64,000 nt of DNA from Diploschistes diacapsis (GCA_023645945.1 JALAIB010000001.1:1-64000); one strand, 5' to 3'; counted from the stretch's first letter, positions 5,470 to 64,000 are shown. The notes: generated by a model not told the origin, from the letters alone. Program-made: numbers and translations.

Positions 5470-5574
5470 ACTCACAACGCTATGCCATGGTGGTGTTGAG
5501 GCCAACCAAGTACTTGTACTGTCATCCCAGGACTTTAGCATGATAGCAGAATCGTAGTGTTGTCCACCAAGCTG

Positions 5575-6468: not shown

Positions 6469-7167
6469 ATGGCGGATGAGGTATGACCCTCAAGACTTTC
6501 GTAATCTTGAACGGGATTGACTCTGCCATTAGGGCGCATCCCCTAGAGAGCTTTTGCTAGAGGCTTGCCGGCGCAACAATGTCGGTCTCCTGAACGAAGT
6601 CCTCGACGCTCAGCCATCAAAGGACAGCATAGCAGACCTTCTCAACAACTCAAAAGATGGCATAGGGAACTACTGTTTACATGTCGCGGCTTTCTACGGT
6701 AGCTGTAAGTCAGTACGACCTCGTGTTGGCGGCTTGTTCTCCCGAGGCTGCAGCTGATACTATCTTCCGCTGTAGATGAGGTGCTGGATCACCTGTTGGA
6801 TCAGGAAGGCCTCGAGGTTGACCCTCTGGACCGTATGGATGGAGACACGCCACTCCACAAAGCGGTGCGCTTCGTCAACAAGTTGGACAAGAACGAATGG
6901 CACTCGGGCGCGGCGTTTGTGGAGCTACTGGTTGACGCTGGAGCTGATCCAAGGTAAGCAATGAATGATATAGCATGGCCGCTCGGCAGCTTACGGTAAG
7001 AACGAAGAATACGCAACAAAGGGAAGTTAAAAGCCTTCGATCTGGTCGACCCTTTAAACCAAGAGCTACGTACAACACTACAAAAAGCAGAGTATGCGAT
7101 GACTCTGGGTGACGATGTTGCAGATGAAGATGAGGTTGGCGATGGTCCACCCAGTGATAGTGACTAG
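6469..7167 (+). CDS. Small ankyrin-repeat protein, 4 exons
   Basis: MADE|GASPRELLLEACRRNN, GNYCLHVAAFYGS, DGDTPLHKAV, LVDAGADPR|IRNK, acidic tail. Confidence 0.85.
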
Positions 7168-7355
7168 GAAATTTGCAGTCTCCACATCAGCATTGCATGA
7201 ATGCATAGCGATGGCGTTCGAACGGAATAGAGCGGGAGTCACGGATCACTCAATCAGGGCATGGGTCAAGCTTCCAAAGCCTGGGTTGTAACGGGCACCT
7301 AAGCATGCCAATCCAAAGGAAAGAAACCAGGCAACATGTTCCAGTCTCCAATCCT

Positions 7356-8662: not shown

Positions 8663-8819
8663 ATTTATGTCCTTTTATAATCGACCTTTGCGAGTTACTG
8701 TAGAAGTAATGAAGCTCGGATGGCAACCGCATGTAACGTGAGGCTGACGCGTAAATTCTGTGGAGACGATTTTTCTCCTTGGGGATAGCGGACCTCGATC
8801 CGGTTTCGTCTTAACAATG

Positions 8820-9320
8820 CTACTTTAAGAAACCGCTACCTCAGTACTTATAATTACATTTTTATATTCCGCGCACTGGTCGTGGAACAAAGATAACATC
8901 CTTAATGGTTTATTTGTTTATGTTTAGAACGCGGCCACTTTGGATTATTATTTAATAACTTTTCGATCTTATTCGACTCTATCCTTATTTTTACGTGTAT
9001 AGAACCATTAAAAACAAAATAAAAACGATATTGATAATAATTTATAATGTGTATAAAGATCGTAGTGTTTTTAAAATCGAAAATGATGAAGAATAAAACC
9101 GATTAATTAATATAAAAAAACAAATCGCGATTTTCTGCTTCTTCATACTTCCATCGAGTAATATCAATAGTTTAGTTAGTTTAAATGTTAAGTTAATGAT
9201 CAAGTTAAAGTAAAACAATTATATAAAAAATGCTTCCACCTAAAACGAGTTGATTTTTATAAAACACTGGATTTAGAAGCTGGAAAATGAGACTTAAACA
9301 TTATTGTCCTTTGCTAAAAT
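8820..9320. other. AT-rich island, possible RIP-degraded repeat relic
   Basis: Abruptly AT-rich and TpA-rich with no ORF, between the NSE3 5' region and the TEF1 3' end. Confidence 0.45.
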
Positions 9321-41186: not shown

Positions 41187-42240
41187 CTAGTTCAGGCCCT
41201 GGAAAAACACCACAGGAACAGCACAGTATGTGGCAACAGCGATCGAAACCTCGGCCTTCTCCCTCGTCCACGCGCTAACGAACGCAGCCCAGAGCTGAGA
41301 GTTGAGAAAGCAAAGAGCGCGTTGCGGGATTTCTGGTCCGAAATCGTGGGAAAGAGGACGATGGGCACGATCAGGCACGTACTTGCCAGCGCCGCTACGA
41401 CGGCGTGGCTCACGGTCGCCAGGGCGGAACTGCTGAAGAGCATGATATGGCCGTCGCGGGTCAAGAGGCTTCGTGTCTACGAATAATTAGGATAATGGTT
41501 GCGGGCTGGCAGAAATGCACACGAGCTGGAATGACTCGCCTTGGGTAGAAACTTTTGCCAGGAATACGGCGCCTGGGAAGCTAATCTTGAAAGGCACTGC
41601 TCCAGCGCGTCGCCAGCGGATCCTTCCGAGGATGAGGATGCTTCATGGCTCATATACACGAAGTCTGCTACACCAACTTCGGGGATCTCAAGATAGATGC
41701 GGCTTTCTGAACGAACGAGCGGTTTCTGACCATCGATCCAATTGCGACACTTGAGAAATCTAATTCCGAAGTGGGCTTTAACTTTCGGACGGGATTATAA
41801 CGAAGAAGCGCCTCATCTGCACATTAGCGGGAGCATAGGAGCGGTTTCTGGAAGTCAATTCTTATCGAGAAACAATGGCCGAGTCCTAGCGAGCAATATA
41901 ATGGAAGATGGTAACAAGGATAACGATAATCTTACCGTTGGTTTTTAGCTCCCGTTGAAGCTGCTGCAACAACATTCGCCGATCCTGATTCTCGTCCGCA
42001 CGGCGCGAGCTGAGGTAGGTTTGGATGGGCTCGCTCTTGTCTAGCGCTCCGAGCTGTTCCTCGATCTCTGCCATAACATCGGCTTGGTGGAGAAGAGCTC
42101 GTATGTGAAGGTAATCGAAGCGTTTGGCTACTGCGAAGGCGCCGTCCATGCTCATGAATGTTGTAAGCGATGCGTAGCCCCCCGAGGGTAGTCTTCTAGA
42201 ACTTTGTATATGCCTTAGCTTCGAGTTCTCTCTGCGACAT
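41187..42240 (-). pseudogene. DUF6594-family membrane protein pseudogene
   Basis: EDYPRG/YASLTTFMSMD..KRFDYLHIRALL, SV/RNWIDGQKPLV and a TM tail ..EVSIAVATYCAV.VVF are split by about four frameshifts. Confidence 0.7.
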
Positions 42241-43164
42241 AAGAGTCTCTTCTTATCTTTGCTCGTTCCTTATTGCGGCACTGGTGTTGTTAGTACCATT
42301 CGTGAAATCTGTTTTGGGAGGGTACTGATGGAGAAGTGTTAAGTCAGGGCCTCTTGATGCAAAATTAAATAGAAGAATCTCTTAATGTTCTTTTTCAATG
42401 CCCAACAATGAGGGTGGGGTATTGCCGCTTGAGCGTCGTAAGGCTGTAGCAGCAGAAGCAATAGACTAGCGCCATGAGATCCACTGGGTTGACCAGTATG
42501 AAGACTAATGTGAAAGGCTGCCCTGAAGTGTGGGAGTAGACTCTAACGCTTGATGAAGTAGGATCAAGTGAGTTAAGCTGGAAGTCATCGAATATCGAAT
42601 ATCGTCACAAGTCAATGTTGTTAAGCTTTGGCCACCCTGTCGGGCACTGTACAGGCAGGCACCAGTTCGGCTTACAGTTGCGCGGTTGACACAGCATACA
42701 CTCGCCCTCCCTGTCGCGTAGATGAAAGACCCGAACAAAAAAATCAAGTCTTGTCACGAGCAAGTTTGTTCAGTTGGCAGCTCAGTGTAGTAAGTAGCAA
42801 AATCTCTTAGCGAAATGACAGATAAACCTAGCAAGGGAAAGGAAGCTGCAGGCACTCGTACTGAGGAAAACAAAGGCAAACTGAAAGCAGTACGTTGACT
42901 GATATCTCGATACTGAATCATGAATTAAGAACTGACCGGTACAACAGACAGAAAACAGTACAAAGCAGAACGTACGTCTCTTCTCAAAGCTCAGACAGCT
43001 CTCTCCTTCGCTTTTCTTACCAACCAAGCTGTCTGGACCTGGTTCCCATTTGAACGCAGTGAGCAGGTTTGGGTGGTTCGAGCTGACCTAAGAGCACCAA
43101 TGGGTCCTTATCTTATTGCTGGGTTGAAGCCAAACGATATGTTTATTTTGAAAGGATCCATCGA

Positions 43165-43727: not shown

Positions 43728-44093
43728 GTATCTTGGAAGTAATGTTGTTGGCGTACTTGGTCAGCTCTGTGAAGGATTTCATATGTAGGTACACACTCTC
43801 AGTGCTTTGTGCTCGGGCCGAGACGCCCGAACAGATCGTTGTTCTGGTTGTACCCATCGGCATGGCTCTAAGGAGCAGATTTCGCCACGAGAGAAAGCGT
43901 GTATTTTGTTTGAACTCATCCGAGCAGCGCCGTCGTGTGATGAAGTGCTCTCAGCGCGATTTCGTTTGGTGCACTGGAGCCATGAAGGGACTCTTTGGCT
44001 AAAGCAGTAAGCAGTATCTTCTCCTGAGTCTTTCTTAAAGAATCAAAAACCATGCGATGAGCAGCATGAGCAGTTGTTGTATTACTGTCCAAG

Positions 44094-45947
44094 ATGAAGT
44101 ACTTAGTACATGACTCAAAGTGTATCAACCTGTCTGATGGCTTGGTGATTGCTTCTCTCAGTGGGCTCGCCCTTCATGTCCTCTATTTCAAAAGGTCTGA
44201 ACATCATATGTATGGTACGAGATACTTGCAGTTAGGGACTCTGGTCTTTGTTGGAGCCGTTTTCTGCCTTTCATATGGCTGCTCGTTTACCTTTGGCACT
44301 GCGTTGGAGGTTTCTACAATGTACACATGTGCTTTGCTCGGGGGTCTCCTTACCAGCCTCATGACCTATCGATTGCTGCTACACCCCCTTCGGAGATTTC
44401 CAGGCCCATGGTGGGCACGTGTCACCAGCCTTTGGTTGCCTACCCAGATTCGTAATGCGGATGCGCATAAGAAAATGCTGATTCTGCATCGCAAGTATGG
44501 CTCTTTTGTCCGCATTGGCTCCTCTGATCTTTCAATATCGCTTCCGGCAGGCGTCGAAGCAGTGTATGGTCCAGGTAGCCCTTGCCGCAAAGCATCATGG
44601 TACGATGAAGATTGGCCACGGCAATCGTTGCATACCACACGTAATCACGACTGGCACCGACAGCGTCGACGTACCTGGAGTCTCGCCTTTAGCGATAAGA
44701 CCCTGAGAAGTTATGAACCGCGAATACGCCGCTATAATGAGATGTTCGTGGATCAAATGGACAAGCTTGCTGGGAATCCTGTCGAGATTTCGAAGTGGTT
44801 CAAATACTACAGCTTTGATGTGATGGGAGACTTGGCCTTCAACAAGGACTTTGGGATGCTTGCCACAGGCAAATCTCACTGGGCAGTCTCTTTGCTGAAC
44901 GAGGCATTAGAGCTGCAAGGACTGAAACTCCCAACATGGATATTCCGAATGCTTTTGGCTGTTCCTGGCCTTGCTGGTAACTACTGGAAGTTTATCAGCT
45001 ACTGCGACTCGCAGCTCGATAGTCGAATGAAGGAGTCGGTATCCCTCGATGTCCCAGACGTCATGGCGACATTGCTTGCCGCTGCCAAACACAAACCTGG
45101 CCAGCCGCTTCCGCCTGCGGAAGATCTAGTCCTACGCTCTGATTCGAGAACCATCATTGTCGCTGGCAGCGATACCACCGCCGCTTCACTCACCCATATC
45201 TTTTTCTACTTGGCGAAAGACCAGTTTGTGCTGCGGACTTTGCAATACGAGCTAGACGCTCTCAGGAACGATGCCTCGGACGGTGTTGTTGACAGCCGCA
45301 AACTACATTCTGCCAGTTATCTAAACGCTATCATCAACGAAACGCTCCGGCTACACCCCGTCGTACCCAGCGCGCTTCCGCGTAAGACGCCACCAGAGGG
45401 CATCATGGTAGGCGACGCTTTCGTCCCTGGAGCCATGATCGTCTGGTGCCCGCAGTACGTGATCAGCCGCGACGAGGCCAACTACGTGCGGGCAGAACAA
45501 TTTGTACCGGAGCGTTGGTCCTCGAGCCCGGAGTTGATCAAAGATGCTTCTGGATATGCGCCTTTCTCCACCGGTAATTATCAGTCTTTCTCTTCATCCA
45601 TATACTGCCCATTAAATCTCCAGAGGTTCTGTAGCGCGCGGGTGTGTGTATGTATCTGCGCCATTTGCAAGACACCTTCCCCCTTCCCCATTGTGACTAG
45701 AGGGCGCCTGACCGACCAACAATAACTCTCATTAGGTCCGTATGGCTGTATCGGACGACCGCTTGCTCTAATTCAACTCCGCACGCTGATTGCCAGCATC
45801 CTGACTCGGTTCGACGTCGCTCTTGCCCCGGGCGAGGACGGTACTGGCCTTCTCGAACGGTCACGCGATCAATTCACGACTGTGTCGGCCGACTTGCTGC
45901 TGGTTTTCAAACCGCGCCAAACCCAGGAGTGCACGAGAAATGTTTGA
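44094..45947 (+). CDS. Cytochrome P450 monooxygenase; intron 45574-45736
   Basis: TM anchor, FPGP, AGSDTT, ETLR, PERW, heme motif FST|GPYGCIG. Confidence 0.95.
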
Positions 45948-46343
45948 TATTCGAAAATGGGAGAGAGGCTTCGTGGGTGAGGTATCATCTCGAATGTTCG
46001 GGCGAGAGTGGGAAAGAGAGTATGAAGGAGAAGTTTGAGAATCAGGGCAGCGTCGTCGGGAGCTGTAGATTTTATAAGTAGTAGTGGTCCCAGAGATGAT
46101 GTGAAAATGAGTTTACCTTCTCAATCGTTTTCGTATCTGCGATCTAGTTGTTGGTGCTATTTTCGTAAATCCATACATGAATAGACTATATGAAATGTTG
46201 TAAAAGAAAGTGGACGTTTCTTTTGAGAACTGGGTGGTAGATTGAGTGATATCCATCTCAAAGATATATTAGCCTGGATAAAATATCATTAAAAAGCCTA
46301 TGAAATACCAGAACACGTTGCTTGTGTATGTATTCTCCAACGC

Positions 46344-48125
46344 TCATTCAGACGCTCGCAAGGCCACCAGCCATAAACCCCCTACCAAGGCTCCTACCGC
46401 CCCTATCAACTGCAGCAACCGACTTCCCAGCCATGCTTTCCCACCCGCATCCCCAACCAGTGCTCCTCGCACTCTCACACTCCCGTCCTTCGAGCCCGCC
46501 GCTCCTCTCTTGCCAAGCCCCGGCAGTCCACCCCCATCAGCCCAAGCCATTTTCCCCGCAAATTCACCCCCTCCCCCTTCCACGGCGTCCACGAACTCGA
46601 GCCGCGGCGCCGTCCTGAAGATCTCACCCAGTTGATCCGCAATCGCGCGGTCGCGCTGATAAGGGAGAATCCACGTCGCGAGGATCCGCATTGCCAGGCC
46701 GTCCCAGGCTTGGACGCGCGTCAGCAGCGACGATATGTCGACTATGGGCGCCATGCGGGGGAGCCGTTCGGCTTGATAGGCGGCGAAGAGGCGCGAGAGG
46801 GTGTGGCGCGAGGGCCTGGCGCCGCTGTGGGCGGCTAGCACGCGGTGGAGGTGGTTGGTCAGCACGACGATGGATTCGATGGTTGAGTTGCCTCCGAGGG
46901 CGATGTTGGGTGTCATCTGGAGAGTATGTGAGTTTTGCAAGCAAAGAAAAAAAGGGGAGGGGGAGGCATAGCAAACGCGATGCGGGGTAGAACATGAAAG
47001 AGGAAAAGGAGACGAGGGATTTCTTAGTTGAAGGAGAGATTGTTGGATACGCACTTTATGCACCGCATCGCCCGCTAGGACGATGCGACCGAAATGCCAG
47101 TGTTTGAGGATGCCCTCTTCGACGGGAATGAGAGATCCTCGGATACGTCGCGCCCATAGCTCGCCAAAAACCATGGACTCTGACAGGGGATGGTCGGCGA
47201 CGCGGGCGGCAGCTTCGTCTGCATCAGCTGAGGAGAAACGCTGCTGTGTAGGCCAAGTTACCGGACGCGGCAGACGAAAGAAAACGAAGAAGAAGACCTT
47301 GTCGGGCTGCGTGAGGATGAGAAACGAGTACCCGTTGTTATGCACGCAGGTCATTGTGCAGCTGCCCATCTCTGGTGCGGGTGGACCCATACCAACGAGA
47401 CAGGTCCAGCGGGTTGAAATGGCTGCCGGGAAGCATTTAGCGCACAGAATGGACTCAATGGGTCCTTTAGGGTCCGCTTACATGTTTTTTCCTTTGTCGT
47501 GATGATACCTTGGTTCGATTGATTTGCATGCTGCCACATTAGATCGCGGACAAGGCTATGCACGCCGTCGCAGCCAAGGACCATGTCAGCTTTTTCTACA
47601 GTGCCATCTCTCAGCTTGACCCGGACCTCATCGACATGTTCTTCAATATCAACAACTTCGGCATTGAAGCGTATGCATGACTCGTCCGGAAGGGCGTCGT
47701 AGAGGAGCTGAAGAAAGACACGCCGCTCAAGTAAGAGCACGTCTTGGCCATGGCTAGTTTCTAGTTGGCTGAAACTTCAAGTGTATATAACGGAATCAGA
47801 GAACGAGAAGGTGTACATACTTCTCCTTGATATACTGAAAAAATTTGCTGTCTACGACAACTTTGCCATTGGGCATGCGGTTAACGAATCTTTCCATCAG
47901 TGTACAGGCATCTTTTGCTGCTTGTAAACAGCCAATTTGATGTAATATGCGTGCTCCATGTGGATAGATGGCGATACTTGCGCCTGCCGGCGGTGCCACT
48001 TCACCTCCTTTCTCTAATACGACGTGATCAATACCTGCCTTGCGTAGAGTATGTGCTGCAATGAGTCCTGCAATGCCTGCACCAACGACGACGACTCGAA
48101 AAGAGGTCGACTGTTCTTTGTCCAT
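46344..48125 (-). CDS. FAD-dependent monooxygenase (PaxM/DEP2-type epoxidase), 4 exons
   Basis: VVGAGIAGL, PPAGASI, GCDGVHS, LAGDAVHK|MTPNIALGGN, C-terminal TM segment. Confidence 0.9.
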
Positions 48126-48485
48126 GTCGACAGAAGGTGGAGGTAGATTAAATCGCCCGGACACAAGGCGAGAAACAATGCAGAAGGAAGAGAAGTCACT
48201 TAGTCTCCAGTACGGCTTAAACTTGTATCGGTGTATCACGTATAGGCCAGGCCAGGCCAGGCCGCAAAGCTCATTCTCACGATGTGGGCGAAGTGAGATA
48301 GACAAGGCATTGCAATCTCAGCGTGAAAGTATAGAGAGCTCGAAACCTACCTCTTCGTCACTCAAGTCAATCTCTTGAGAACCATTGAGACCTTTGCGAG
48401 CTCAGGCCAAGTGATTCTCCCTGCCATGGTCTGGATGTTAAAGGCCGAGATCTACTTGAATAAAAGATTCAAGCTCCATTTCGGT

Positions 48486-48517
48486 CCGAAAATCACCGAA
48501 GCCCGAACCACGCCGAA
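48486..48517 (+). promoter_or_regulatory. Four CCGAA direct repeats, candidate Zn2Cys6 binding sites
   Basis: CCGAA at 48486, 48496, 48503 and 48513 in the divergent monooxygenase/methyltransferase promoter. Confidence 0.45.
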
Positions 48518-48856
48518 ACGTACATACTTCTCGCCGTGACGGCTTAAAACAGACTCTGCACACCACGGATGCAGTCAACGTCCATTCGATGGCCTAGCCC
48601 GGAGGAAGATGGGTTACGATCAACGTGGGTTCGGTGTGATAGACCGCGCAGTATTGCCTTGCATCTTTAGTATGCAATATACGTCTAGCAAACCCAGACT
48701 TTGAAGAGACGTCTGAGAAGGCTCGAGCCAACACCGTTCCGACTTAACAGCGCTTTGCAGCTTCGTTTGGGCTGTGATTATCGGATTGCTGCCACTACTC
48801 ATGACCGATGTCAGAGTCCTTCACGCTGGTTCTCAAGAGCTGAAAGATTGGCGAAC

Positions 48857-50006
48857 ATGGCCGCTGCAACTGCTTCACACGAATATGTCCTTGGCCGAGA
48901 TTATTTGGCATCCGCACGGTTCGACTCAACCGTCTCCTTGCTGCCCAGAGCCATTACTAACATCAATCAGTTTGAACCTACAACATGTGAACTCTATTGA
49001 GAGAACTCAAGTATAAAGCACTGACTTGAAAAGTATCTCTGGGTGCAGGAAGTAGGTTATCACCTGCATCCGTCCATTACTCTGAAGCGTGACAATCTGG
49101 CGATTGCGGACGTTGCTACTGGAACCGGGTGGGCGCGCCAGACTCCTTCTTCCCCCAAACTGTGTTGATACGATTGACAGTATATGGATCACCGATCTTG
49201 CACAAAAGCTTCCCAGTTGTACCTTTCAAGGGTTCGACGTAGATCTCGCTCAAGTACCACCCAAGGAGTGGCTTCCCCCGAATGTAAAATTCGATGGACT
49301 CGACCTATTTCAGGCCCTGCCACAGAGTTTTGAAGGCAAATTTGAGTATGCCGCTCATCACAAGGCGGCTGTTCTGGTCTTCTGATCGAACTAGTATCAT
49401 CCATTTGAGACTCCTCATGTGCGTTATCAAGGAGGATCCTAGGCCTGTTTTGCGAACTCTGATCAAGATGTTAAGTAAGACCCAACATGGCACGCAATCT
49501 TTCCATCATTTTCTGACTCATTGCCTTGAAGAACCCGGAGGGTTTCTGCAATGGGGCGAGATGGACCATTCGACGCGTCGGTTTGAAAGAGCAGGCGACG
49601 ACGTCTCTCTCCAAGAGATTACCCGTGCGGGCGAGTATCCAAGCACGCTTGTAGCACAGGATTCAAGGCTAGATCAGAAGTATTACCTCGAGTAGTCGTC
49701 GTGTGGTGCGGCGCTGTAGAGCTTACAGAGCATAGATGGATAACCAGCTTAGGCACACTTTTCGAGAGTGAAGGTCTAGAGCTTGCCGCAAACGATCACC
49801 AATTCCGCGATGTCAGTCGTCTTCCGCCTTATCAAGATGCCGCCTTCATGATGTGGAACGAATTACGAAATAAGATGGGACGACCGTACAGCGACGAGTA
49901 TGACGGTATCCTTGCAGACGCCCAAAGGAAAGTGCAGCAGGCAAAGCGGGGGCTGTCCATCAATATGGAAATTCGTACTGTAGTTGGACGGAAGAGAACA
50001 CTCTAG
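48857..50006 (+). CDS. SAM-dependent methyltransferase (LaeA-like/GliN-like class), multi-exon
   Basis: YVLGRDYLASAR|LNLQH|YLW, IADVATGTG|IW, GFDVD, IIHLRLL, LKPGGFLQWGE. Confidence 0.88.
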
Positions 50007-50282
50007 ATAGTAAAATCTAATTTGTTGCTGGCTTGAATTCGCTCACGGACTCTACCTAGCGATCATCCCAATCTTATGCGGCCTTTAGACATGCTGTGTA
50101 TTTGGAACAAGAGCGGGAAAGATCTTTGTGAGGGTGATTTATCTGCTTTCATCATGATACGTGCTGCATTCACAAGGCATAAGTCCTTCTTTTCTGGTAA
50201 GTGGCAAGTAACGTTCCTAAGCGACGAGTAACGAAGGCAATGCCATGGCATCAACAGCAATAGTAAAAGCTTGTGTTTACCT

Positions 50283-53200
50283 TCAAGCCTCTGGATCTTG
50301 CACGCCCATATTCCCCGCGATTGTTACTGATAACTTTCTGAATGTCAAAGTGGGCGATAGTAGCTGCTGGAACGAGATATCCAGGCCAAATTCCTTGAAG
50401 AGCCAGTTGCGCAGCTCTGATCCAATCATGCTGTCGAGCCCATAGCTGGCAACTGACGTGCCATCCATTTCGAAACTTTCCGCCGGCACCATGAGAATAC
50501 CCGAAGCGCGTTCCATGACATGCTGTGCGATAACCTCAACGGCTACATTGTAGCCCTTGGATAAAGCTTCTTTTAGCGTCTGCTGAAAGTTGCCGTTCCG
50601 CTGAGCCGGTCGTGTTGTACGTGCTATCTCCTCCATCTCAACACGGATCCGACGTAGGCGAGCATCATTATACCAGTAGATATCGTCACTATCGCTGGAG
50701 GCGAGATTCTTAGCGAGTTCGCTAGGGTCGAGACCAAGGATGATCTGCGAGTCAGAGATCTGAGGTACAGTCTGACCTAACTGATGTTTGGAACGGACCA
50801 TTGCAATCTCAAAGCCACGTAACATCTCCTGCTCATCGATGCCGTACATGCCCTTGCGACTCAAGGAAGCGTCAATGTCCTCGTTTTCTGCGACGACGCC
50901 TACGTCGAGCACCATAGGTAGGACTAGGGATGTACCAGCTTGATGCCTGACGTTGCGCTGCCATGCGAGAGAATCAAGGAAGCTGTTAGCGGCGCTGTAA
51001 TTGCACTGGCCAGGGTTACCAAGAGTGGCCGAGATTGAGCTGGTCATAACGAAAAAGTCGAGCTCAATGCCTTCGAAAGCCTTGTCTAAGCATTGGACGC
51101 CGTTTAGCTTGGGTATGATAGCTGCTTGGAAGTCTATAGCGGACATGGTCTCAAACAACCCATCCTGAAATTGAGCCGTTAGGTTTGCTGAATTCCCATC
51201 TTGTAGCACATGGTGCTTACCTTCAATACCATTGCGGCATGGACCACTCCCCTGATCGGTCGTTCTGTCATCAGCATATCTATGACTTCTTTTACTTCGC
51301 TATATTTAGAAGCGTCGGCCCGGATGATCTGAGTGGAAACGCCTGCATCCTCAATAGTCTTGATCACCTCCCTGGCTTCGCTTCGATCGGCTCCAGATCG
51401 CGATATGAAAGCAAAGTGTTTCGCCCCTCGCTCTACCATCCACGTAGTGAGACTTCGACCGAGACCGCCCAAACAACCAACGAGGAGATATGTAGCCTCA
51501 GGAGAGAAGCGATACATGCTCACGTGAGGCTCGCACTGGTAGGATGCATTAGTTGGGACCGTTTCAATCTCAAAAATTTTAGCGAGTTGCTCTTACTTTG
51601 ATCACACTCGTCTCATAGTTATACCAAGCCACTGCATCCTCGGACTGGTAGAAAGTGGCAGGGGAAAGCATCTCGATATCATGAATTGTTGACTTGATGG
51701 TTAGCAGCTCTGGATAGTTGGTTAGTAGCGATAAAGCGACTTTAAGTAATTCGCAAGCGGTTCCGGGATCTTCGCAAGTCAAGTCTAAGATTCGCGTTGC
51801 CATGAAGGATGCGCCGCGGCCAAAAGGAAGACTATCCAAGGCGCTTTCAGTCAATGCTTCGTTGAGGACGAACCGACCTAGAGGTCTAACAGATCTCCAT
51901 ATATCCCTCTCTAATGAAGAGAATTCATGAGCTATGACAATCGAGGGCGAGTCTGTTGCATGGCTCATGAGTTCAATGATGCTTTTGACGTGAGATGCCT
52001 GAATGACACTGCTAGATTTTAGACCAAACTTAGTGATGCATATTTGCTTGTCGTGGTCATTGGTCACTACAATCGTGAGTTTCCAATTGAAGATGCGCGA
52101 AAGACGGATGTATGCAGCCATGGATACCAACGACATAGGTAGAAGCAGCAAAAATTCCTGGCCTCGCAACTTCCCTGCCAAAATGCTGGCATTGAGAGCA
52201 GGATACAAGGGAGCCAGAGTCGCTAGAACATCTTTTGAATCGACGCTGGTTGGAATAGGTGCCCAAACAGAAACTTGTACAACTGTACAGAGGGTCGCTC
52301 TGGTATGTGCTACAACCTCCTTTCCTATAAAGAAGGATCCGACGTTTGGTCCGGCATTGATCACCGTTCCTAAGATGAAAGCACCGGCGTCTGCATTTTC
52401 CAGTGGCTTCGAGAATGTGACTTGGACAGTGATCTCGTTGTCACTCAAAACATTTGATTCGTATGATGTATCCGCGCGAAATACCAGCTGATCCTCTTTG
52501 ATTGAGCCCATAAAAGCAGATCCTGCAGTAAGCTTTCTCTTTTCGTGTCGACTCGACGAAACGCTAATCTGTGCATTCAAGGAGTCATTTGCGATAATTC
52601 GATCGACATGCAGGACACCTTGGTGCAGCCAGTATTCTACATCCCTCCCGGAGTCCTTTGTTGCACAATTGCGTAGAGCAGTAAGTATAGCCCGACTGAC
52701 TTCACTTTCTTCTTCATTTGATTTGTAGTCCAATAGTGCAATCCTAGAAGCAGCTCTCTCTGAACGAATTACTCGGACGAGTCCTTCCAACATACCTGCA
52801 TTTGTTGACTTGCCTTCCCTGACACCTTGTGTGAGCAATAAGATTGACACTGGCGCACACAAAACAACTTGAATTGCTTTGAAGGCATCGGCTGATCCGC
52901 TGGCGAGAACGGTGGAAACTGTGTCAGAGAGTATGACTTGCTGATCCGTTGAAACATCGAAATCTCGTAAAAGTTTCATGCTGACTTCGAAACCTGATAT
53001 GGTGAGGAAATTTATGAGCCTATCGCCAAGCGGAGTTTCATCATTTGCGTAGAGGATCGTCAAGCGACGCGACAGGTCTGTAGCTCCATTCGTGGATGTG
53101 GCGTTGTTGCATATGAGGAGAACACAGTCGTTCGAGTTCAAAGGAAGCGGCGAAATCATCCAGCCGTAGGAAGAGGCATCGTTAGTAAGTTTTTCGCACC

Positions 53201-56200
53201 GCTGTTCAATGGTGTAAATGATCATCCATCCTTGGTGCTTGATGATCTTCTGGACTTTCTCAAAAGTCTCTGCCCGCAATCCAGCTTGTCCAGCGTCTTC
53301 ACGAACAAGTATCAAGTCAGTGGTCTTCGATGCCCAATCACTAAAATCTTCAGATAAGAGGACCGTTGAAATACGAGGTTCAGCGGTCTCAGGTAGTATA
53401 TTGAAGTCATCTTGCTCTTCCTGTAGATAGCCAAGCGTGATCGATACATTCGTAGGTAAGCATTGCAAGAGACCTTCTTCTTCACTCCGGCTGGATTGAC
53501 CAAGAAGTAATACATTCGCCACACCATACTTGTGATCAAGCAAGTCTGCAATTCTGCGGACTGTATCGGTCGCTGAACTATCACAGTATTCAGCCAATTG
53601 CATGAAGCTTAGAGTCGAAATATCTGGTTTCCATGAATTTCGCATATACGGTTGGCGTGGAGTCACTATTGAATTTGCTGCAGGAACCGCAGCTTCGTAA
53701 GCCACGCAACGGAGGCCTTTGATATCCATGATCATGTTTCCGCTTTTGCCACGTAGCTTGGCATGAGTGTTGAAATGGCGTGTCTCGAATGTCTCTGTCC
53801 AAGCAATAGCCTCACCAAAGGAGCCCAGGTCTGCTTCAGGGAACCAGAAGTCGACCTCGTTGACCTTAAGGGGTACTACGCCCCAAGGTATGTCTTTATG
53901 CCGACCAGCATGGATAGAAATGATGATGAGTTGTAGGCATGCATCCACTGTAGCCGGATGGATGATATACCTTGACTCGCCCGGTATCAATCCACTGGTG
54001 TCACGAATCAAGACATCAGCTGCAGCCTCATTATAGTTGTGGTCACTCTTGACTCGATGAAGTTGTTGAAAACTTCCCTTATAATCAAATCCCACACGGG
54101 AGAAAGCATCATACCATCTTTTACCAGGGACACGTTGCGTCAGCTTCGAAACTTTCACGGGTGACTCGTAGTCACAGTCGGATTTTATCAAGTTGACGTT
54201 TGCTGCAATCAGACCTTCACAATGAGTAGTCCAAGAGCCATCAGTCAGCGACTCAACCACGAATTTGTGCCACTTTCCTTCGCTTGGATGCTGATCAATT
54301 CTTTGAAGATGAAGCTCGATTTCGATTCCGATGTCGGTCTCTGGAATTACGAGAGCTGTCTTGATATCCAAATCTCGTATTGTGGCACCATCGAAGTGTA
54401 ATGCGGATGCTTCGTGTCTTTGTCGCAGAGCTTCTATTGCGAGTGCCATGTAACCTGAAGCAGGGAAGATTGCTGCATTGCCCAGCTGGAAACATCAGCG
54501 GCTTCAATTTCACTTTTGTCGTATAATGATAACTTACAGTGTGGTCTCGAAGCCACGGTACATCCCTGTGACGTAGAAAGTTGCGCCAGACGGTATGCTT
54601 ATCGGACAAGCCTATAGCAGCACAGTTAATATCTCGATTTCGTTCATGTACAAGAACTATATTATAGCCACTGCTACCGGAAGAGAGAGCCTAAAATTTG
54701 AATCGAAGTAGTTGAATGAATCAAGGCACATACCAGAAACCTTAGTACCCAAAAGATCATGACGCGCGTGCTTAAGATTCCGCTGCTCCATGCTCGACCG
54801 AGGCTCTGTCCAATAGATTTTCTCGTAATTCCATTGGTATGGAGGAAGGTCCACGAGCAACGAAGGAGCATCACGCATATGGCAAAGAGATGCCCGATTA
54901 GAAAGCTCAATAGAATTGACTGCTTGTAGATCTACTTTGTAGTCCTTGAGGAAGAGAGTGCCAGCAACCGAGAGCAATTGCAATCCGTCATCGCGGCCTC
55001 GGACAAACGAAGGTATGTAAGCAAAATTTTCGAATTCGTTCGCGACGCAAATTTGTTTGAAAGGTGTAGAGAGAGTAGAGTGTGGTCCGATCTCGACGAA
55101 ACAGATGCCAGCTTCATGATCTATATCTTTCATACTGTGGAGGGCAGTAACCGCAGTGTTAAATTGGACAGGATTTCGTAAATTATCGCTCCAGTAACTT
55201 GGGTCCAGATATGTGTCAGAGACTTCGCGGCCAGTGACCGAGGAGATCATACGCCGAGGAGCTCTCCGCCAGATTAGATCCTGCGAACCGAGACGTTCCA
55301 GAGCATTAGACAAGAGCTCATCATAAATAGCGCTGACAGGTGCCATCTGTGGTGAATGATAAGCCTTGCCAGTCTTCAATTCCCTTACGAAGACACCTTC
55401 AGACTTAAGCTTTTTCTGAATTTTGCGTATGGCTTCCACGTCACCACTTAGGGTTGTACTGGTTGGAGAGTTCTCGCAGGCAACCACTACGCTATCCTCT
55501 GACTGAGAAAATAATTTGGATACTTCCCTTGTACCAATACCTACCGCGAGCATGCTGCCTGTTGAGGAATGGCATTTGACTGCGGCTCCCCGGCAGAAAG
55601 CTATCAATATGGCTTCTGGGGCAGATATAAGGCCTGCGGCATACTGGTAAGATTCGTTAGTTCTTATAAGCTCTATGATAGGATGAACGTGTTTTGAATT
55701 AGCCGGGGACTTACAGCGGCCCCTATCTCTCCAGATGAGTGACCGATGCTAACGCACGGTTCGATGTGCCATTCCCCGAACAAGTCCACAAGAGCAATCT
55801 GGATAGCCGTACAAAGAGGCTGGGCTAATTCGGCGTCGTTCATCTGATCTGTATGGCTTTCCCCAAGCAGAACACTTTCCAATCTGAACGGCGATGGCGT
55901 CTCAAGGGTTTCGAGGACTACATCCAACTTACGGATTGTTTCACGAAAGGAAGAAAACGTAAGCATGGCAGATGTTGCCATTCCGATCCATTGCGCCTAA
56001 AAATGATAAGCGATGGTGGTTCTGAAGGATAAAAAGCTTACTCCTTGGCCTGTGAATAGGTACCCAACAGAAGGCGGCTTGTTGGCAGCAGCGCCATACC
56101 TCACCGCGGTTTCCGCAAAGGCTTCAGTCTCTTGGCCTTGTCTTATGACTGTGAAGGCTCGTTGGGCGAATCTATTTCTCCGAGTATTCAGTGTGAAAGC

Positions 56201-58189
56201 TAGGTCCACGGGAAAGTAGCCTTGGGCTAGATACTTGACTAATGGCAGCGACATTGCGTATTAGCGTAGGCTTGTCGTGAGCAGAGAAGCTAAGCAGAAG
56301 AGGCTTCTCAGTGCTATGATCATAATCTGCTTCAACTTTGGTTGCACCATGCTGATATCCAGGGTATAGGGTTTTAGCAGATTCGACAATGACATGTCCA
56401 TTGGTTCCGCCGTAGCCAAAGGAGGATACGCTGGCTCTCTTGCTGGGCAGACCCAGCGGCCATGGCACAGAATTGACATTGACCTTGACATTCCATTCAG
56501 ATTCATGAACTGGTTCTCATTAGTCTTCGAGTCCAAACATTTCGCGTAGCTTAATTTTCAAGACGGAAGATCTGGAAAGCTGCTTACTGTTGGGGTTGAG
56601 CGTTTTGAAATGTGCAACTCCGGGGATAACGCCCTTCTCGGTCATTAAAGCCGCCTGGTTGTTTTAGACGTCGTCAGCTCGCTTTCACTCAACCACGCAT
56701 CGGAACTTCCATTTGCTCACGTACCTTCATAACAGCAAATATACCAGAGGCTGCCTCACTATGTCCAATATTGGGCTTGACCTGGTAACTCCCAACGATT
56801 AACCATGTTTCTCTATCGGAGCATCAAGAAAGCCGAAGCCTTGAACGACTTACCGCTCCTAGAATCAGTGGGTAGCTCTTTGATCGATCATCATTCAGAG
56901 CATTCGCAATTGCTTGCACCTCAATCGGATCTCCCACAGGTGTACCAGTCCCATGTAGCTCCGCATATGTGGTATTCTTCGGGTCCAATCCTGCAGCTTC
57001 GTAGGCTTTACGGACAACTTGCTCCTGGCCTTTGATAGAGGGATGAGTAATGCCCATCCCGGGGATCTTTCCGTTTCTATATGGAAAAGCTCAGTTAGTC
57101 AATTATATTTCGAGTTGGTAGCAAGTCCCTGGCTAATATTTGACTTACGTGTTGACAGCTGTCCCTCGTATAACCCCGCGCACTGGATCACCATTACGAA
57201 TGGCATCCGACAAGCGCTTCAGATACAGTGCTCCTGCTCCTTCAGCGCGACCGTAACTATTAACTAGTTAACACCATTCACACTTCTTTGGGCATCTTAA
57301 CGAAGCTGCTGAGTAGGAAAGAGAAGGCTGTACCCGTCCGCAGCCGCATCGAACGTGTGGCAGGTTGATGTTGGTGATAGTATACCTAATTTTGCTGTAT
57401 TCATGTGTTGATCAACTGTCAATATCAAATTCACGCCGCCTGCGATTGCTGCGTCGCAGTCACGAGCTCGTAAAGCGTGACAGGCGAAATGTATCGCATA
57501 GATTGACGATGAGCAAGCAGTATTGATGGTAAAGCTATACGCTATGGTGGTAAGTAGATATCCTTCTCCCTTACATATTTATTTTGACTTTATCTAACCT
57601 TGGTCCATTGAGGTCGAATGTGTGACCAATCCTGTTACTTATGATGCCTGGGTCAACTCCGGTCGCCGCATAATTGTGACGAAAGTCAGGCTCTTTGGTT
57701 GACATTTGCTGATAGTCGGATGTGAAACTACCAACGAATACGGCGGTATTGCTTCCTGCTATAGACTCAAGGGTAAGACCTGTGGATTCAAAGCATTCGT
57801 AGGAGACTTCAAGCATCTTGCGCTGCTGAGGGTCCAGCCACTGCGCCTCAATAGGCGTTATGCCAAAAACCGTGGGGTCAAAGTTCTCAAGTCGATCATC
57901 TAGGAAGTACCCTCCACGAACATTGAACGATCCAGGGCGCTCGAGATTCTCGTGGTAATGGGCATCCACATTAAAGCGTGTCTCTGGAACTTTGTCCATC
58001 TGCCCAGAACGCTTCTTCACCAACATCTCCCATAGGGACGCAGCGGAGTTGACGCCTCCTGGAAGTCGACATGCTCCCTGGCGTCGGTCAAGTGTCAATA
58101 AGTAAATGGAGAAGCGTACCCATGCCACAGATGGCTATCGGCTCCAACGTGCAGCTCTCGCTACCAGGAGATCTTGTACTATGAGGCAT
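50283..58189 (-). CDS. Reducing iterative type I PKS, KS-AT-DH-(pseudo-MT)-(pseudo-ER)-KR-ACP; DEP5-like
   Basis: [47 protein letters not shown]-x-LG-x4-P, HPATVD; KR GCLGGLG, YSAAN; ACP GLDSM. Confidence 0.93.
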
Positions 58190-58899
58190 CTTGATTACAG
58201 AGCACTGAATGTGAATCTGAGATTAGGTCGAATTTTTTTAGTAACCGGCATGGAAGTCACCTGGGAGGGAGTCATCCAAGTCTGGGAACTTAACCTTTGT
58301 AAGCCTTTTCCAATTCTGTTTGACGACAAAAAGGGTCTTTCTGCATATCTTCCTACTTGTATTGTATACTATCGGCCCCTCACCGCTTGCTTGATAGACC
58401 GAAGCGCTTGAGTTACAATCATTGTGAACTTGTACTATGACGCGAGCTGTATGAATATCGATATTGCCTGCATTACTGATCGACATGTTTTCCTACCATG
58501 TCTAGTGGATATGCAAGCCGGACGTCGTTCGCCGACAGAATCAGCCCATAAGTCGTTGGAGATAGAACGCCAGCTATCATAGGCCGAATTCTACCCGCGA
58601 GCATGCGTAGACCACCGACAGGAGCTATCCCCGCAGACTACGAGATACTCCGAAGTAGGCTCGCCTTCTTCAATCCATGGATATCCAATTCGGAGCCTCG
58701 CACCGAGTATATATGCTAATCCCGCATTATGGAATTTTAGATTCGAAATCGTTGAGGCGTTCAATAAGAGACTATCTACCAGCTCTCAGCAATTTCGATT
58801 GATAGACCGTTGAGAACCTTTGACTTTTTGTAACGAGTTAGGATGTCTTTCTGGACTAACAAAGAAGCCCGGGACCGATCTCCCTGTATCGGAAACAAA

Positions 58900-60058
58900 A
58901 TGGTGGCCGTTGCAATTGAAGTAGTGTACTTTCGCAGCCTTGCTATTTTGGCGATTTGCTTATTGTGGGGTGTGAGCTTATGGAACGGCACTGTGAAGGC
59001 ACTCATTCTGGCTGTATGGTCTGGTAGGTTAACCGACGATACGCCGTTGAAAACAGATTATACAGGAATCTATCCGGTAGATTTTTTGGTCTCTCTGCTG
59101 GTTGCGTTCTTCTTCTACGGGTCAAATGGCCATGACTTGGACTACCAAGTTTTCCTCTTGGAAGCGTACTCTACACTTCAAAGTGCCTTTGTATGGCTCT
59201 ATGTCGAAAGTGCTAGAAAGCAGGCTAAGCCCAGAGCTATTCAAAGGTTAGCGATCCTCATCACACTCATCACTAATGATAAAACTAAATGTTTCAAGCC
59301 CTATGGCCTGGGGTCTCATTTGGCAGGCATTTGGAGCTGCGATTTCGCTGCCCCTTTATTATGCAAGACACTTGAGCTGGATGAAGCAAGTAAACTTGCA
59401 GCCACAGAGTGTTTCGGCAGCTTCCTCTCGGGCTATACCATTTAGCTTCATGCTGGGAGCAATTGTTCCTGCTATCATTGGCATGCTTCCGACTTGGATT
59501 CATCCATCTTCCAGGTCACCTAGGATGCATCAGAATGTACTTGCGATGTGGCAAGCAGATCCGCTTTACGTTTCGATGATTCAACAGCTTTTTGCGGTGA
59601 TGATGCACAAGTACGCTACAATAAATGCAAGGACATCATATGTCTGGACTCAGGGATCTCTCCTACTCGCAGCAGCTTCGTCAACAATTGGGCATCTTTA
59701 TGCAAAATTTTATATCCTAAAATCTGCTCATAGGACCGATCGCTTTGTACGAATGTACGTACCGTGGAGCTGGAATGGCAGTATGACCACACCAGATATT
59801 TTGGTCCACGGTCCTTGGTTGTTTCTGCAGTTTGACCTAATCATCATTAATCTATCAAGTTTGTCATGGGCCTACCTCCTCTGCAAGCTTCATTGTTCTG
59901 TCGTCTCCACCCAACTCGTATTATTTTTCTCCATTCTTTTGGGGACGCTGGTAGTTGGACCAGGCGCCACAGTGTCCTTAGCTTTATGCTGGAGGGAAGC
60001 GCAGCTGAACGAACTCCGAGCTTCAAAAACGACATCGGGCAAATACCATAACCAATGA
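58900..60058 (+). CDS. Integral membrane protein, DEP1 / CtvD-AurD-like; intron ~59246-59298
   Basis: YTGIYPVDFLVSLLVAFF, WLYVES, WQAFGAAISLPLY, FLQFD, GPGAT..WRE, many TM helices. Confidence 0.7.
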
Positions 60059-60946
60059 TTTTCTAGCGAGAAGTTCAAGTGCTGTTCAGCAAATCAGATA
60101 TAGGCTTTGTTGCAATGTTTTGGGACCCATGGCGACGGCTATGATCTAAGCTCAATGTCTACTTGAGCGTCTGGCGATTCTGACGGCCGGAGTCTTTCTA
60201 CATTGCTATTATCTAGCGCGAAACTCTCTGGTCCCTGACAAGACAAGCGCGAATAGGGAACTCTGATTGGGCGCGACTTTTGTGACCTTGGTGTTTTCTC
60301 CTTGCGATCAGGTTATAAATTGATTATCCAACGGGTGAATTTAATTCTTCAGGATGGCGTGGAAAGGGCACGGCCTGGTACCTTCCGGTCCCCGATAGGT
60401 TGCCGTTTAGCGTTATGTATCCAATGCTGGATGATACTTGATAATGTTGTGTTTTCCATCTCTGTTTCAAAGCTCAGTAATAAGCAGTTTTACGCTAATG
60501 CTTTGCTTCATCATAAAAAGTGCTGGCAAAACCTTCGGCGGGCTTTGCCGAATAAAGGCTTGACCGGGCAGCATTGCAGCAGAACCAATCTATCTTTACT
60601 CCGTTTGAACTCTGCCGGCAGTCATTGTACCGTGCCGACTGATCTAAGAGAACGGAGTTTGTGGACCGAGCATGGGTCAGTCTAGAAAGCTGTGCACTTC
60701 GGTAGATTGAGCAACTATAGTTATCTGCGTGCACATGTAGCATGAGATGAGCCGGTATGGGGCGCCTCTTGCACGAAACTGACACGAGTTTAGCACCTAA
60801 GGAATTAGCTTCTTACACCATGAGGATCGAGTTTGATCTCGGCATGCTATTTGTCTTTGTCTAGCGCTGTGACTTCAATTAGAGACTGGCACATACCAGA
60901 GCTTCCTTTCTCTAGAGTACTCAACACTTATCCTTCAGCTGTAAAG

Positions 60947-62861
60947 ATGAGCGGAAATAGCGAGAGGTACGATGTGACCATCATAGGGGCTGGTAAGTTC
61001 GTTATAGCAGAAAAATGCTTCTCCGCGGGTTTTCCATAATTAGAAGCTAGGCTGACTTGTATAGGATGGTATGGGCTAGTGGCTGCTAGAACCTATCTCA
61101 AGCTTCGTCCCGCTGTGAATCTTGTCGTCCTCGATTCCGATTCTACTGTAGGAGGAGTATGGAGCAAGAAACGTCTGTATCCAAACCTGATAGCCCAAGT
61201 CAAATTAGGGCTATTTAACTATACAGACATGGCAATGCCAGGAACCTCTCAGGACAATGAAGTCACTGGCGCCATGATACATGAGTATCTCAAGCGTTAT
61301 GCGGAGGACCATGATATCATTAGACGTATCAGATTCAACACGTTTGTTGAGAGAGCGGCAAAGACCGACCAAGGCTGGAGACTGAGCCTTCGCGATCTTC
61401 AAAGTACGGTGTCTTTCATAGACACAGCAAAGTTGATGGTCTGCACCGGGGTCACCTCTATACCATCAATGCCGACGGTGAAGACACTTGAATCTTCGAT
61501 TCCAATCATTCACTCTCGGGACCTTGGCGTCAAATTTCATGACCTCGGCCAAGACAAGGTACAAACAGTGGTTGTCGTTGGCGCTGCAAAATCTGCTTAT
61601 GATGCTGTCTACTTGATATTGTCCATGGGCAAGCGAGTCATTTGGCTTATTCGACCAACAGGGGCCGGGCCCCTGGCCATCTTGCCCTCAAAACTGCTCG
61701 GCTTGAGTAGTATCGCTGTTGCATCTACTCGGCTAATGACATACCTTAGTCCTTCAATCTTGAATACCGAGGGTCTGCTTTATCGCTTTTTCCAAAGAAC
61801 AGTAATCGGTCGCTGGTGTACAGGCAAGATTTGGGATGTTATAGCATATCTGAGCGACCTCCATGCTGGGTACTCGAAAGATGATCATGTTCGCCAGTTA
61901 AGGCCCGAAGTCGACCGTCAGAGGTTGGAACACTCTACGCTACCACTCAGTGTGAATGCTAATCGAGACAGCATCTTCTGGGCTAACTCTGGTCTTGGAG
62001 TGGTGACGCTTCCCGATTTTTGGTCGAAAATTCATGCAGGCGATGTTCAAGTCATACGCGACTCGATCGAGCTAATAAAGCATGATTCCATCATCCTGGA
62101 ATCCAGTGCTACATTCGCGGCTGATTACATTGTAATGTGTACAGGTTGGGGCGATCACTTTAGCATGTTTGATGCCGAAACCAAGGCCGAGTTAGGCATT
62201 CCCACTCTTGGAGAAAGGCATTCAAAAGACGAGCCGACTGTCGACGTGGAATGGGAGAAATATGACCTTGAAGCAGATCAGACCGTTAATGAGAAGCTCC
62301 CTTTCCTCGCCTCTCCGCCGCAGTGGACCGGTTGGCAAACGAATCACGATCAGGCGCGGAAGCGCTGGCGACTCTATCGGCGCACCATACCTCTTTCGCT
62401 AGCAGAAAAGGGGGACCGTTCCCTTGCAATCATGGGCCAAATCCATACTATACAGACGCCTTTAGTCTCAGAAGTCCAATCCTTCTGGAGCATTCTTTAC
62501 TTGCTGGGAGAACTCGATGTCCCCGACTCTGACACCATGGCACAAGAAATTGCCGAATGGAATGCTTGGACACGAAAGCGCTACCTAAGCCAGGGACAAA
62601 AGTTTCCATACTCGCTCTACGATTTCTTGCCAGTAAGCATGCCCTAACCTCTGTAGTTCTCTCAAACCTAAGCTTCTGATGGTGAAAACAGAGCTGACTG
62701 GACGTTGCCAGTATGTGGAGACCTTGTGCAAAGATCTCGGCATTAATTCGCGGCGAAAGCGTAACATGATCACCGAGCTTTTCCAGCCATACAAGCCAGC
62801 CGATTTTGAGGGTTTCATCGATGAGTATCTAGCGCGAGACACGTCGGACCAAATGAAGTAG
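60947..62861 (+). CDS. Flavin-containing monooxygenase (class B FMO), DEP4-like, 4 exons
   Basis: YDVTIIGAG|WYGL, GGVWS..RLYPNL, CTGVTS, IHS, VGAAKSAYD, MCTGW, RLYR. Confidence 0.88.
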
Positions 62862-63326
62862 GTGCTTCCAGTTTGAGCCTCAAACTTCCGTGGTCGAGCA
62901 GCGAGGAATGAAAATGCCCAATTAGACAGCGGCAGATGCTTCTTTTGAAAACAATGATTCAAAGAGGCGTGTCGGTGAGGATGGCAATGAATCGTGAATG
63001 TGGTCGTATGCAGTGTCCCCAATAGGCAGGCTGCGTGGGCGACCTGAAACTTATCCTGTATCTTGAGATACCACTGAGGGGCAGTAGTGGCATTTCATGA
63101 TCCTTTGTGCAGTTAATGCTTGGCTCGCAGCCAGAATGGACCTCTGATCAAGCATTGTAAGGATGATTAAAGTTCGGCATCTGGGCCGGGGCTGCAGTGA
63201 CTTTCTCTTGCTGAGTTTGAAACTATTTCTTCTCCGTGCGATCAGAGCGTATTAGCCAGGCCCTCTAAACTTTATACGGATTTCTGCTGCACCGAGACGT
63301 TGCTGAGTCTTTTTCCTTTCGGCACC

Positions 63327-64000
63327 ATGTACAATGGCTCGAGAACGAAGAATCCCGGCGGAGCTCACTCTGCAAACGGGAACCAGTCTGGCACGCCCTT
63401 CAAACGCCCTACCACTGCTACCAGCGACAGCGGTGGCGGTGGAGGCAACGAGAACAGCAGTGGCCCCCGACATATAGCGTGTAGGACATGCCGGGACCGA
63501 AAAGTGCGCTGCGATGGTGGACAGCCAGCCTGCGAGAAATGCCGCCGAGCTGGTGAGACATGTGTCTATACTCTACGATCTCGAAAGACAAAGACAGATC
63601 TTCAGGAAAGCATAGAGATGCTTCAAGAACGACTCGGTAAGTTCGTCTCTCATTATCCATCTTTCTATTGTCCTTGCCCGCTAACCCTTGGACAACGCGG
63701 GCAGAATCTGCCCTCGTAACGCGCAACACAGACACCCAGAGTGGAAACTTTTGGCCTGCAACATCTTACTACTCTCTCGCTGATTCCATGCCTCCCAAGT
63801 CGGACCATCTTCAACGGCCATCCTCACCACCAGAACTGATGTCGGACTCTCAACTCGTGGGAAGTTCGCGGCTAGATCTTCCCAACTCAACCATGATCCC
63901 GTACGATTCTATGCCATTTGCTACGAATGCCTCAATTGACTCCAATCTCAATTATACGATACCTTCGGATGGTCCCGGGTTCGCGGGGATGGTGACCACC
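63327..64000 (+). CDS. Zn2Cys6 transcription factor (DEP6-like), 5' part, runs off the window
   Basis: CRTCRDRKVRCDGGQPACEKCRRAGETCVY plus a coiled coil. After the intron (~63637-63704) the frame stays open to the end. Confidence 0.9.

Follow-up and report, generated by a model that had tools for sequence, protein, structure and literature searches.

What kind of polyketide pathway is encoded in the last 20 kb of a 64,000-nucleotide stretch of Diploschistes diacapsis DNA (GCA_023645945.1 JALAIB010000001.1:1-64000; hereafter the window), and how does it relate to the depudecin pathway? Seven gene types lie at 44.1-64.0 kb, in the order cytochrome P450 (+), flavin adenine dinucleotide (FAD)-dependent monooxygenase (-), S-adenosylmethionine (SAM) methyltransferase (+), reducing polyketide synthase (PKS, -), membrane protein (+), flavin-containing monooxygenase (FMO, +), and Zn2Cys6 transcription factor (+). 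A first-pass annotation had described them as contiguous intact genes forming a depudecin-type cluster expanded with a P450 and a methyltransferase. Order, strands, and all seven types hold, while intactness does not, as the PKS carries a frameshift at 56228-56231 and the regulator is cut by the window end. We assign the locus, with a probability of roughly 0.6, to an orphan secondary-metabolite cluster of a lichen mycobiont, one that falls into a widely distributed ascomycete family with a PKS and a DEP1-like membrane protein at its core and that would follow the mechanism proposed below. Among the members of this family, the depudecin cluster seems to be one that has been characterised, and we know of no other. 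Judged by the gene types, the product is probably an oxygenated, O-methylated polyketide, either linear or oxygen-heterocyclic, and not depudecin itself.

Linkage is conserved across the family. In ten of ten species checked (Calogaya, Hypoxylon texense, Parahypoxylon, Aspergillus hancockii, Paramyrothecium, Stachybotrys, Talaromyces stipitatus, Penicillium vulpinum, A. steynii, and Aplosporella), the PKS gene and the membrane-protein gene adjoin each other or lie two genes apart, as read from locus tags or accession numbers. They are direct neighbors in the window and in both loci of related DNA retrieved by a metagenome scan, termed L001 (20.7 kb examined of a 43,256-nt contig) and L002. In all five other species checked, a P450 orthologue (49-59% identity) is found at a distance of 1-12 genes from either the PKS or the membrane-protein gene. 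In Blastenia (Q9170_004822/3) and Pleomassaria (KAF2710675/6), the P450 orthologue adjoins the homologous PKS; in Paramyrothecium and Stachybotrys, it is five accession numbers away from the PKS, and in Hypoxylon sp. FL0543 twelve accession numbers away from the membrane-protein gene. Because of this linkage in five other species, we regard the P450, on comparative grounds, as a recurrent member of the cluster family and not as a novelty of this locus, which weakens the proposal of an expansion by the P450. Thus, the pair of PKS and DEP1-like protein, often with the same P450, recurs in Lecanoromycetes, Sordariomycetes, Eurotiomycetes, and Dothideomycetes.

All gene models are spliced and were built from the sequence, while the Pfam scan was run on stop-to-stop reading frames. 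The PKS (50283-58189, minus strand; ~2,386 aa) displays the domain order ketosynthase (KS), acyltransferase (AT), dehydratase (DH), a segment of ~700 aa without Pfam match, ketoreductase (KR), and acyl carrier protein (ACP). Its model comprises 12 exon blocks and one frameshift, and three additional in-frame introns appear as stops in the translation. Pfam matches to ketoacyl-synt, KAsynt_C_assoc, Acyl_transf_1, PS-DH, KR, and PP-binding were obtained on the minus strand at 50.3-58.1 kb. In tblastn, the window PKS spans residues 23-2341 of the 2,347-aa homologue from Talaromyces stipitatus, and its conceptual translation contains all expected catalytic motifs, including GLDSM. Relatives were collected with the 971-aa exon between DH and KR as query (117 matches). 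No C-methyltransferase (cMT) or enoylreductase (ER) family of Pfam was matched by this exon or by the first 97 of the 117 homologues, whose Pfam content was checked, and the window PKS shows no Pfam match for a thioesterase domain. The best relative of the exon is 53% identical and is recorded, like a membrane-protein match, from an ENA contig of 9,869 nt; the next is from Blastenia crenularia (44%). One PKS homologue from Penicillium brasilianum (P0177) is annotated as a protein of 3,287 aa with domains of a major facilitator superfamily (MFS) transporter fused on. Two genes were probably merged in this model, which hints at an MFS transporter adjoining the PKS in P. brasilianum.

The DEP1-like protein is a polytopic membrane protein of 368 aa, encoded by two exons (58900-59246 and 59299-60058) on the plus strand at 58900-60058. 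A search that pre-filters candidates by shared words yielded 138 relatives at E <= 0.001, the best 120 of which were listed. No Pfam family was found in the two window pieces or in the 120 listed relatives. The best relatives are 55-61% identical, the best species-named ones 48%. The latter value also applies to P0015 from Paramyrothecium foliicola, which is annotated as "Depudecin biosynthesis cluster protein 1", a name that an annotation pipeline carried over. The window protein groups with five sequences (support 99) in a 58-row tree, and this group is nested in a clade of 23 rows that also contains Penicillium, Aspergillus, Talaromyces, and Caloplaca/Calogaya. The family falls into many clades, and some single Hypoxylon species hold two paralogues.

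The membrane-protein family shows 28 invariant columns, many of them polar and including Asp, His, Arg, Gln, and Glu. These residues would fit an enzyme better than a passive membrane protein. The AlphaFold model of P0015, computed from 52 sequences, is all-helical and of high confidence (pLDDT 92.8, pTM 0.91). Foldseek returned 0 matches for it in the PDB at E <= 0.001. Exhaustive comparison with VIA-align reached a Z of 5.1 at best and nothing at Z >= 8, which is within chance for helical bundles; therefore, no fold is assigned, and a new fold is not proven by this result. In the Atlas, the neighbors of P0015 are clusters without Pfam family, and a DUF2834 row scored only 0.78. In the library searched, we found no paper that assigns a function to a DEP1 homologue and none that reconstitutes the depudecin pathway.

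From these gene types, we infer each chemical step of the following route. The PKS would make an unbranched, unsaturated, and hydroxylated chain, whose double bonds may be epoxidised by the FMO, the class-A FAD monooxygenase, or both. The membrane protein would then process the oxygenated chain, with epoxide opening or rearrangement, or chain release, as plausible reactions. The P450 could add further oxygen, and O-methylation of a hydroxyl, enol, or carboxyl group would be the task of the methyltransferase. The Zn2Cys6 factor is predicted to switch the genes on.

Of the competing explanations, all of them improbable, the least improbable regards the locus as a genuine member of the depudecin clade that carries orthologues of DEP1, DEP2, DEP4, DEP5, and DEP6, gained a P450 and a methyltransferase, and would yield an oxidised or methylated depudecin analogue. 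The depudecin cluster of Alternaria brassicicola (Wight et al. 2009) is reported to consist of DEP1-DEP6, and DEP5 is reportedly a reducing PKS that lacks ER and cMT domains. The gene types of the window agree with such a cluster: a PKS without ER/cMT match, two flavin monooxygenases, a membrane protein of a family annotated as DEP1, and a Zn2Cys6 regulator. Moreover, DEP orthologues from different fungal classes are given as 50-59% identical in one report (PMC8620734), so that the identities seen here, being moderate, are compatible with orthology. However, no DEP5-named protein occurs among the 117 PKS matches, and no Alternaria protein among these or among the 120 of 138 membrane-protein matches listed. 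Further, the membrane-protein family with its many clades and within-species paralogues, the recurrence of the P450 in distant fungi, which speaks against a local gain, and the lack of an MFS gene in the window all oppose this explanation. Judged indirectly from the hit lists, orthology to the depudecin cluster looks unlikely, and the resemblance would be at family level only. The proposed five DEP counterparts are confirmed as types (DEP1, DEP2/4, DEP5, and DEP6), but not beyond a family-level likeness. Clusters called depudecin-like are reported routinely in fungal genome papers (PMC8620734, PMC10999098, PMC3895014, PMC5996196); the depudecin cluster is cited in PMC3895014, PMC8620734, and PMC5756342.

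A second explanation, which we consider rather improbable, follows the logic of deoxyverrucosidin, aurovertin, and citreoviridin biosynthesis. In this case, an α-pyrone polyene would be released by the PKS and O-methylated at the pyrone by the methyltransferase. After epoxidation of the polyene tail by the FMO, the membrane protein would serve as epoxide hydrolase or expandase, with the last epoxide coming from the P450. According to PMC12312803, the dov cluster has the same seven gene types, including a transmembrane "cyclase", and the aur, ctv, and ast pathways use a PKS, a methyltransferase, an FMO, and a membrane-bound epoxide hydrolase. A PKS without thioesterase match, as in the window, also agrees with this logic. 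The same paper, however, gives the PKSs of these pyrone clusters as KS-AT-DH-cMT-KR-ACP, with a cMT in DovA, AurA, CtvA, and AstA, whereas the window PKS and its first 97 homologues have none. It also describes DovD as rare, with <41% identity outside Penicillium, whereas the window membrane protein belongs to a large family. Finally, no protein of Penicillium polonicum, Calcarisporium, or Aspergillus terreus is found among the listed membrane-protein, PKS, P450, and methyltransferase matches.

In support of the preferred assignment, an orphan cluster of the PKS and DEP1-like family, L001 carries PKS (-), membrane protein (+), FMO (+), and transcription factor (+) in the order and orientation of the window, with identities of 56-84%, 60-76%, 77-78%, and 59%, respectively. 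At 17641-20743 of L001, the transcription factor is followed by a short-chain dehydrogenase/reductase (SDR) and a glucose-methanol-choline (GMC) oxidoreductase, and the window cluster may continue likewise beyond 64000. L002 contains PKS (-), membrane protein (+), SDR, and FAD monooxygenase. Its PKS homologue (2996-9074) is split into many short reading frames, some of them abutting without a change of frame, as might result from many introns or from degradation.

Two sequencing runs labeled lichen metagenome were compared with the window, namely X1, the probable source sample, and X2, an independent run. A separate public assembly of X1 is letter-identical to the window over 44001-64000 at a depth of 98. 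In X2, the entire 20 kb are collinear on a single 26-kb contig that is ~1.8% diverged. Of 41 insertions and deletions (indels) between X2 and the window, 12 are listed, as far as 51572, and 11 of these 12 lie in introns or between genes. This comparison points to moderate constraint on the coding frames.

The P450 gene (44094-45947, +; 563 aa) consists of two exons, 44094-45573 and 45736-45947. Removal of its single 162-nt intron joins the haem motif FSTGPYGCIG, and the Pfam family p450 is matched at E 3.9e-48. A protein from a Diploschistes diacapsis metagenome-assembled genome (P0238) is 100% identical to the window P450 over 74% of the query, and orthologues among the listed matches reach 54-72% identity. 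Between X2 and the window, the rows listed contain 11 synonymous and 15 non-synonymous differences in the P450 (pN/pS 0.43), and both X2 indels inside its span are intronic.

The class-A FAD-dependent monooxygenase (46344-48125, minus strand; 496 aa) is encoded by four exons (48125-46344). FAD_binding_3 was matched by Pfam on three minus-strand exon pieces. The model contains the motifs GAGIAG and GDAVHKMTPNIALGGN, the second being GDAVHK...GGN, and has a tail rich in glycine, with a hydrophobic stretch at its end. A homologue (44-52% identity) lies in L002 1.4 kb past the membrane-protein gene, beyond the SDR gene. The one coding indel of the 12 listed falls into the glycine-rich C-terminal tail: X2 has one base fewer at window position 46573, in the G-rich run coding for it. 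This loss would shift the frame of the last ~75 residues; the window frame agrees with L002.

The class-I SAM methyltransferase (48857-50006, +; 278 aa) is assembled from seven exons separated by introns of 47-57 nt. Its 3' end is only ~280 nt away from the PKS stop. On stop-to-stop frames, four pieces of the gene gave no Pfam match, and its identity was settled by the spliced model, which reveals the SAM motif IADVATGTGIW. A micro-exon of 16 nt (48971-48986), which encodes RLNLQH and is flanked by introns of 52 and 47 nt, would be easily missed by automatic gene callers. Aligned end to end, 141 of 274 positions are identical to P0368 from Polyplosphaeria fusca and 128 of 274 to P0372 from Varicellaria rhodocarpa. 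Three of four homologues scanned match the Pfam families Methyltransf_23/12/25, and a search of solved structures with a homologue gave a single weak, generic methyltransferase match (E 0.0022). Searching a library of 1.84 billion representatives with the 89-aa last exon as query returned only 11 relatives, from Polyplosphaeria, Ikaeria, Varicellaria, and further contigs; none of the 11 is from Paramyrothecium, Stachybotrys, Blastenia, or Pleomassaria. Given this small number, we consider the methyltransferase an uncommon partner, and in L001 it is not next to the PKS. A methyltransferase fragment (P0369) and a P450 orthologue of 58% identity (P0244) are both recorded from ENA on two contigs, the longest of 7,342 nt, which hints that the P450-to-methyltransferase block exists elsewhere too.

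Downstream of the membrane protein, the FMO (60947-62647, +; 542 aa) is encoded by exons 60947-60992 and 61065-62647. It is class B FMO-like, with the Pfam family FMO-like matched at E 1e-12, the motif GAGWYG, and Atlas neighbors that are all generic FMO-like clusters. The Zn2Cys6 transcription factor (63327-64000, +) is represented by its N-terminal part only, runs off the window end, and contains an intron at 63637-63704; Pfam Zn_clus is matched at E 1e-10. Directly upstream of the starts of these two genes (60735-60866 and 63044-63203), stretches are replaced or shortened in X2: 130 nt are swapped for 132 others, 11 nt for 99, and 75 nt are skipped, with the coding sequence only ~1.5-2% diverged. 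Hence, promoters seem to turn over fast in this comparison. The 8-mer ATCTCGGC has five of its six window copies inside the 20-kb cluster (48444, 48894, 51028, 60836, and 62734; the sixth at 36061). It is intergenic in three of the five intergenic regions, namely between FAD monooxygenase and methyltransferase, upstream of the FMO, and between FMO and transcription factor. L001 contains it at 1752, 11490, and 19456, with one copy upstream of the FMO. We did not use this 8-mer as regulatory evidence, as it was picked after the fact and is statistically weak.

To the left of the cluster, 1-41 kb of the window hold ordinary genes: photolyase, glutathione S-transferase (GST), a MAGE-domain protein, eEF1A, ribosomal protein L13, SLS1, adenosine deaminase, DUF3405, splicing factor 1, glutaminase A, and a GH5 hydrolase. 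Between these housekeeping genes and the P450, there is an N-terminal DUF6594 fragment (41886-42269, minus strand; covering 1-83 of 238 profile positions), which may be a broken gene on the left border of the cluster. The statement that no MFS gene is seen proved correct for the window, since 1-41 kb are housekeeping and the reading frames scanned at 40.7-64.0 kb gave no transporter match. An MFS gene could lie beyond 64000.

The PKS frameshift (56228-56231, minus strand) is located between KS and AT. The sequence reads ...NVAAISQV and is followed by four nucleotides where every homologue has one codon, with the frame switch at 56229/56230. In the alignment, L001 and L002 run through this site in a single frame. 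We rejected an intron at 56.23 kb, as the site leaves no space for one and the candidate GT/GC..AG introns delete a conserved segment of 14 residues or have a length of 36-37 nt. The local-alignment score did not separate intron from frameshift models; direct alignment favors the frameshift. An assembly slip is unlikely, because the separate X1 assembly is letter-identical at a depth of 98, and we treat the frameshift as real in this sample. It would truncate the PKS after the KS domain in the sequenced individual, and therefore the pathway may have been inactivated recently, or pseudogenised.

Several observations weigh against an active seven-gene cluster of the PKS and DEP1-like family. The frameshift may mean that the cluster is dead in this genome. 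No promoter motif is common to all five intergenic regions, where no 8-mer occurs in at least four of the five. Among the 120 P450 matches listed, there is no same-species orthologue from the Penicillium, Aspergillus, and Talaromyces of the nearest named membrane-protein clade, and accession numbers, on which the linkage in named species relies, indicate neighborhood in the genome only indirectly. Of the relatives compared at the DNA level, L001 is the closest; it has no methyltransferase in the 1 kb after the PKS stop and no homologue of P450, methyltransferase, or FAD monooxygenase in the 20.7 kb examined, so these three genes may have been added as a block of their own in this lineage alone. 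Finally, we found no product, expression, or biochemical data for the cluster or its close relatives. Taken to its end, this gives the least probable explanation, and a very doubtful one, of two unrelated blocks: only PKS, membrane protein, FMO, and transcription factor would form a real cluster, as in L001 with nothing methyltransferase-like after the PKS stop and with SDR and GMC oxidoreductase as continuation, and P450, FAD monooxygenase, and methyltransferase would serve another pathway or none, the P450 and methyltransferase orthologues seemingly sharing one short ENA contig, but the P450 orthologues adjoining the PKS in Blastenia and Pleomassaria and lying near it in Paramyrothecium and Stachybotrys, the FAD-monooxygenase homologue near the membrane-protein gene in L002, and the short distance from methyltransferase to PKS stop speak against it.

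As an orphan cluster of the PKS and DEP1-like family, the locus is fairly ordinary, one more orphan reducing-PKS cluster of a lichen fungus. Culturing lichen fungi is difficult, and for most of their reducing-PKS clusters no product is known. With its frameshifted PKS, the window copy offers a poor starting point. The useful lead is rather the family itself and the role of the DEP1-like protein. More tentatively, PKSs without ER/cMT, together with an FMO and a DEP1-like protein, might constitute a large unexplored pathway family, in which epoxidised chains would undergo epoxide opening, ring expansion, or cyclisation by the membrane protein, as a new type of membrane-embedded catalyst parallel to AurD/DovD in function and structurally unlike anything solved. 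The lichen P450 and the rare methyltransferase might then lead to a new O-methylated epoxy or furan polyketide. We regard this wider idea as speculative.

Compared with the depudecin cluster, the window has a PKS of the order KS-AT-DH-KR-ACP without ER/cMT match, as DEP5 is reported to have, two flavin monooxygenases (one class A, one class B FMO-like) as candidate counterparts of DEP2 and DEP4, a Zn2Cys6 regulator of the DEP6 type, and a membrane protein of the DEP1-like family, whose gene lies next to the PKS and is transcribed divergently from it, and which is likened to DEP1 via the annotated P0015. In contrast to the depudecin cluster, it has a P450 and a methyltransferase, no MFS gene (DEP3) in the window, and a different gene order. 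Further counterparts are the uncharacterised clusters found in Paramyrothecium foliicola (KAI9164122-127), Stachybotrys elegans (KAH7311404-409), Blastenia crenularia, and Pleomassaria siparia, which combine a homologous PKS with an orthologous P450 within a few genes. The PKSs of Paramyrothecium, Stachybotrys, and Blastenia match the whole 971-aa exon at 35-44%, that of Pleomassaria 30% of the exon at 50%, and the membrane protein, where seen, is 46-48% identical to that of the window. These four clusters differ from the window in that no methyltransferase relative was found for them. By gene type only, dov of Penicillium polonicum matches the window more exactly than the depudecin cluster does (PMC12312803). 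The dov, aur, ctv, and ast pathways share the logic that an FMO introduces the epoxide and a membrane enzyme then acts on it, together with an O-methyltransferase and, in dov, a P450 (PMC12312803). Unlike the window PKS, their PKSs carry a cMT and, in that account, make C-methylated α-pyrone polyenes.

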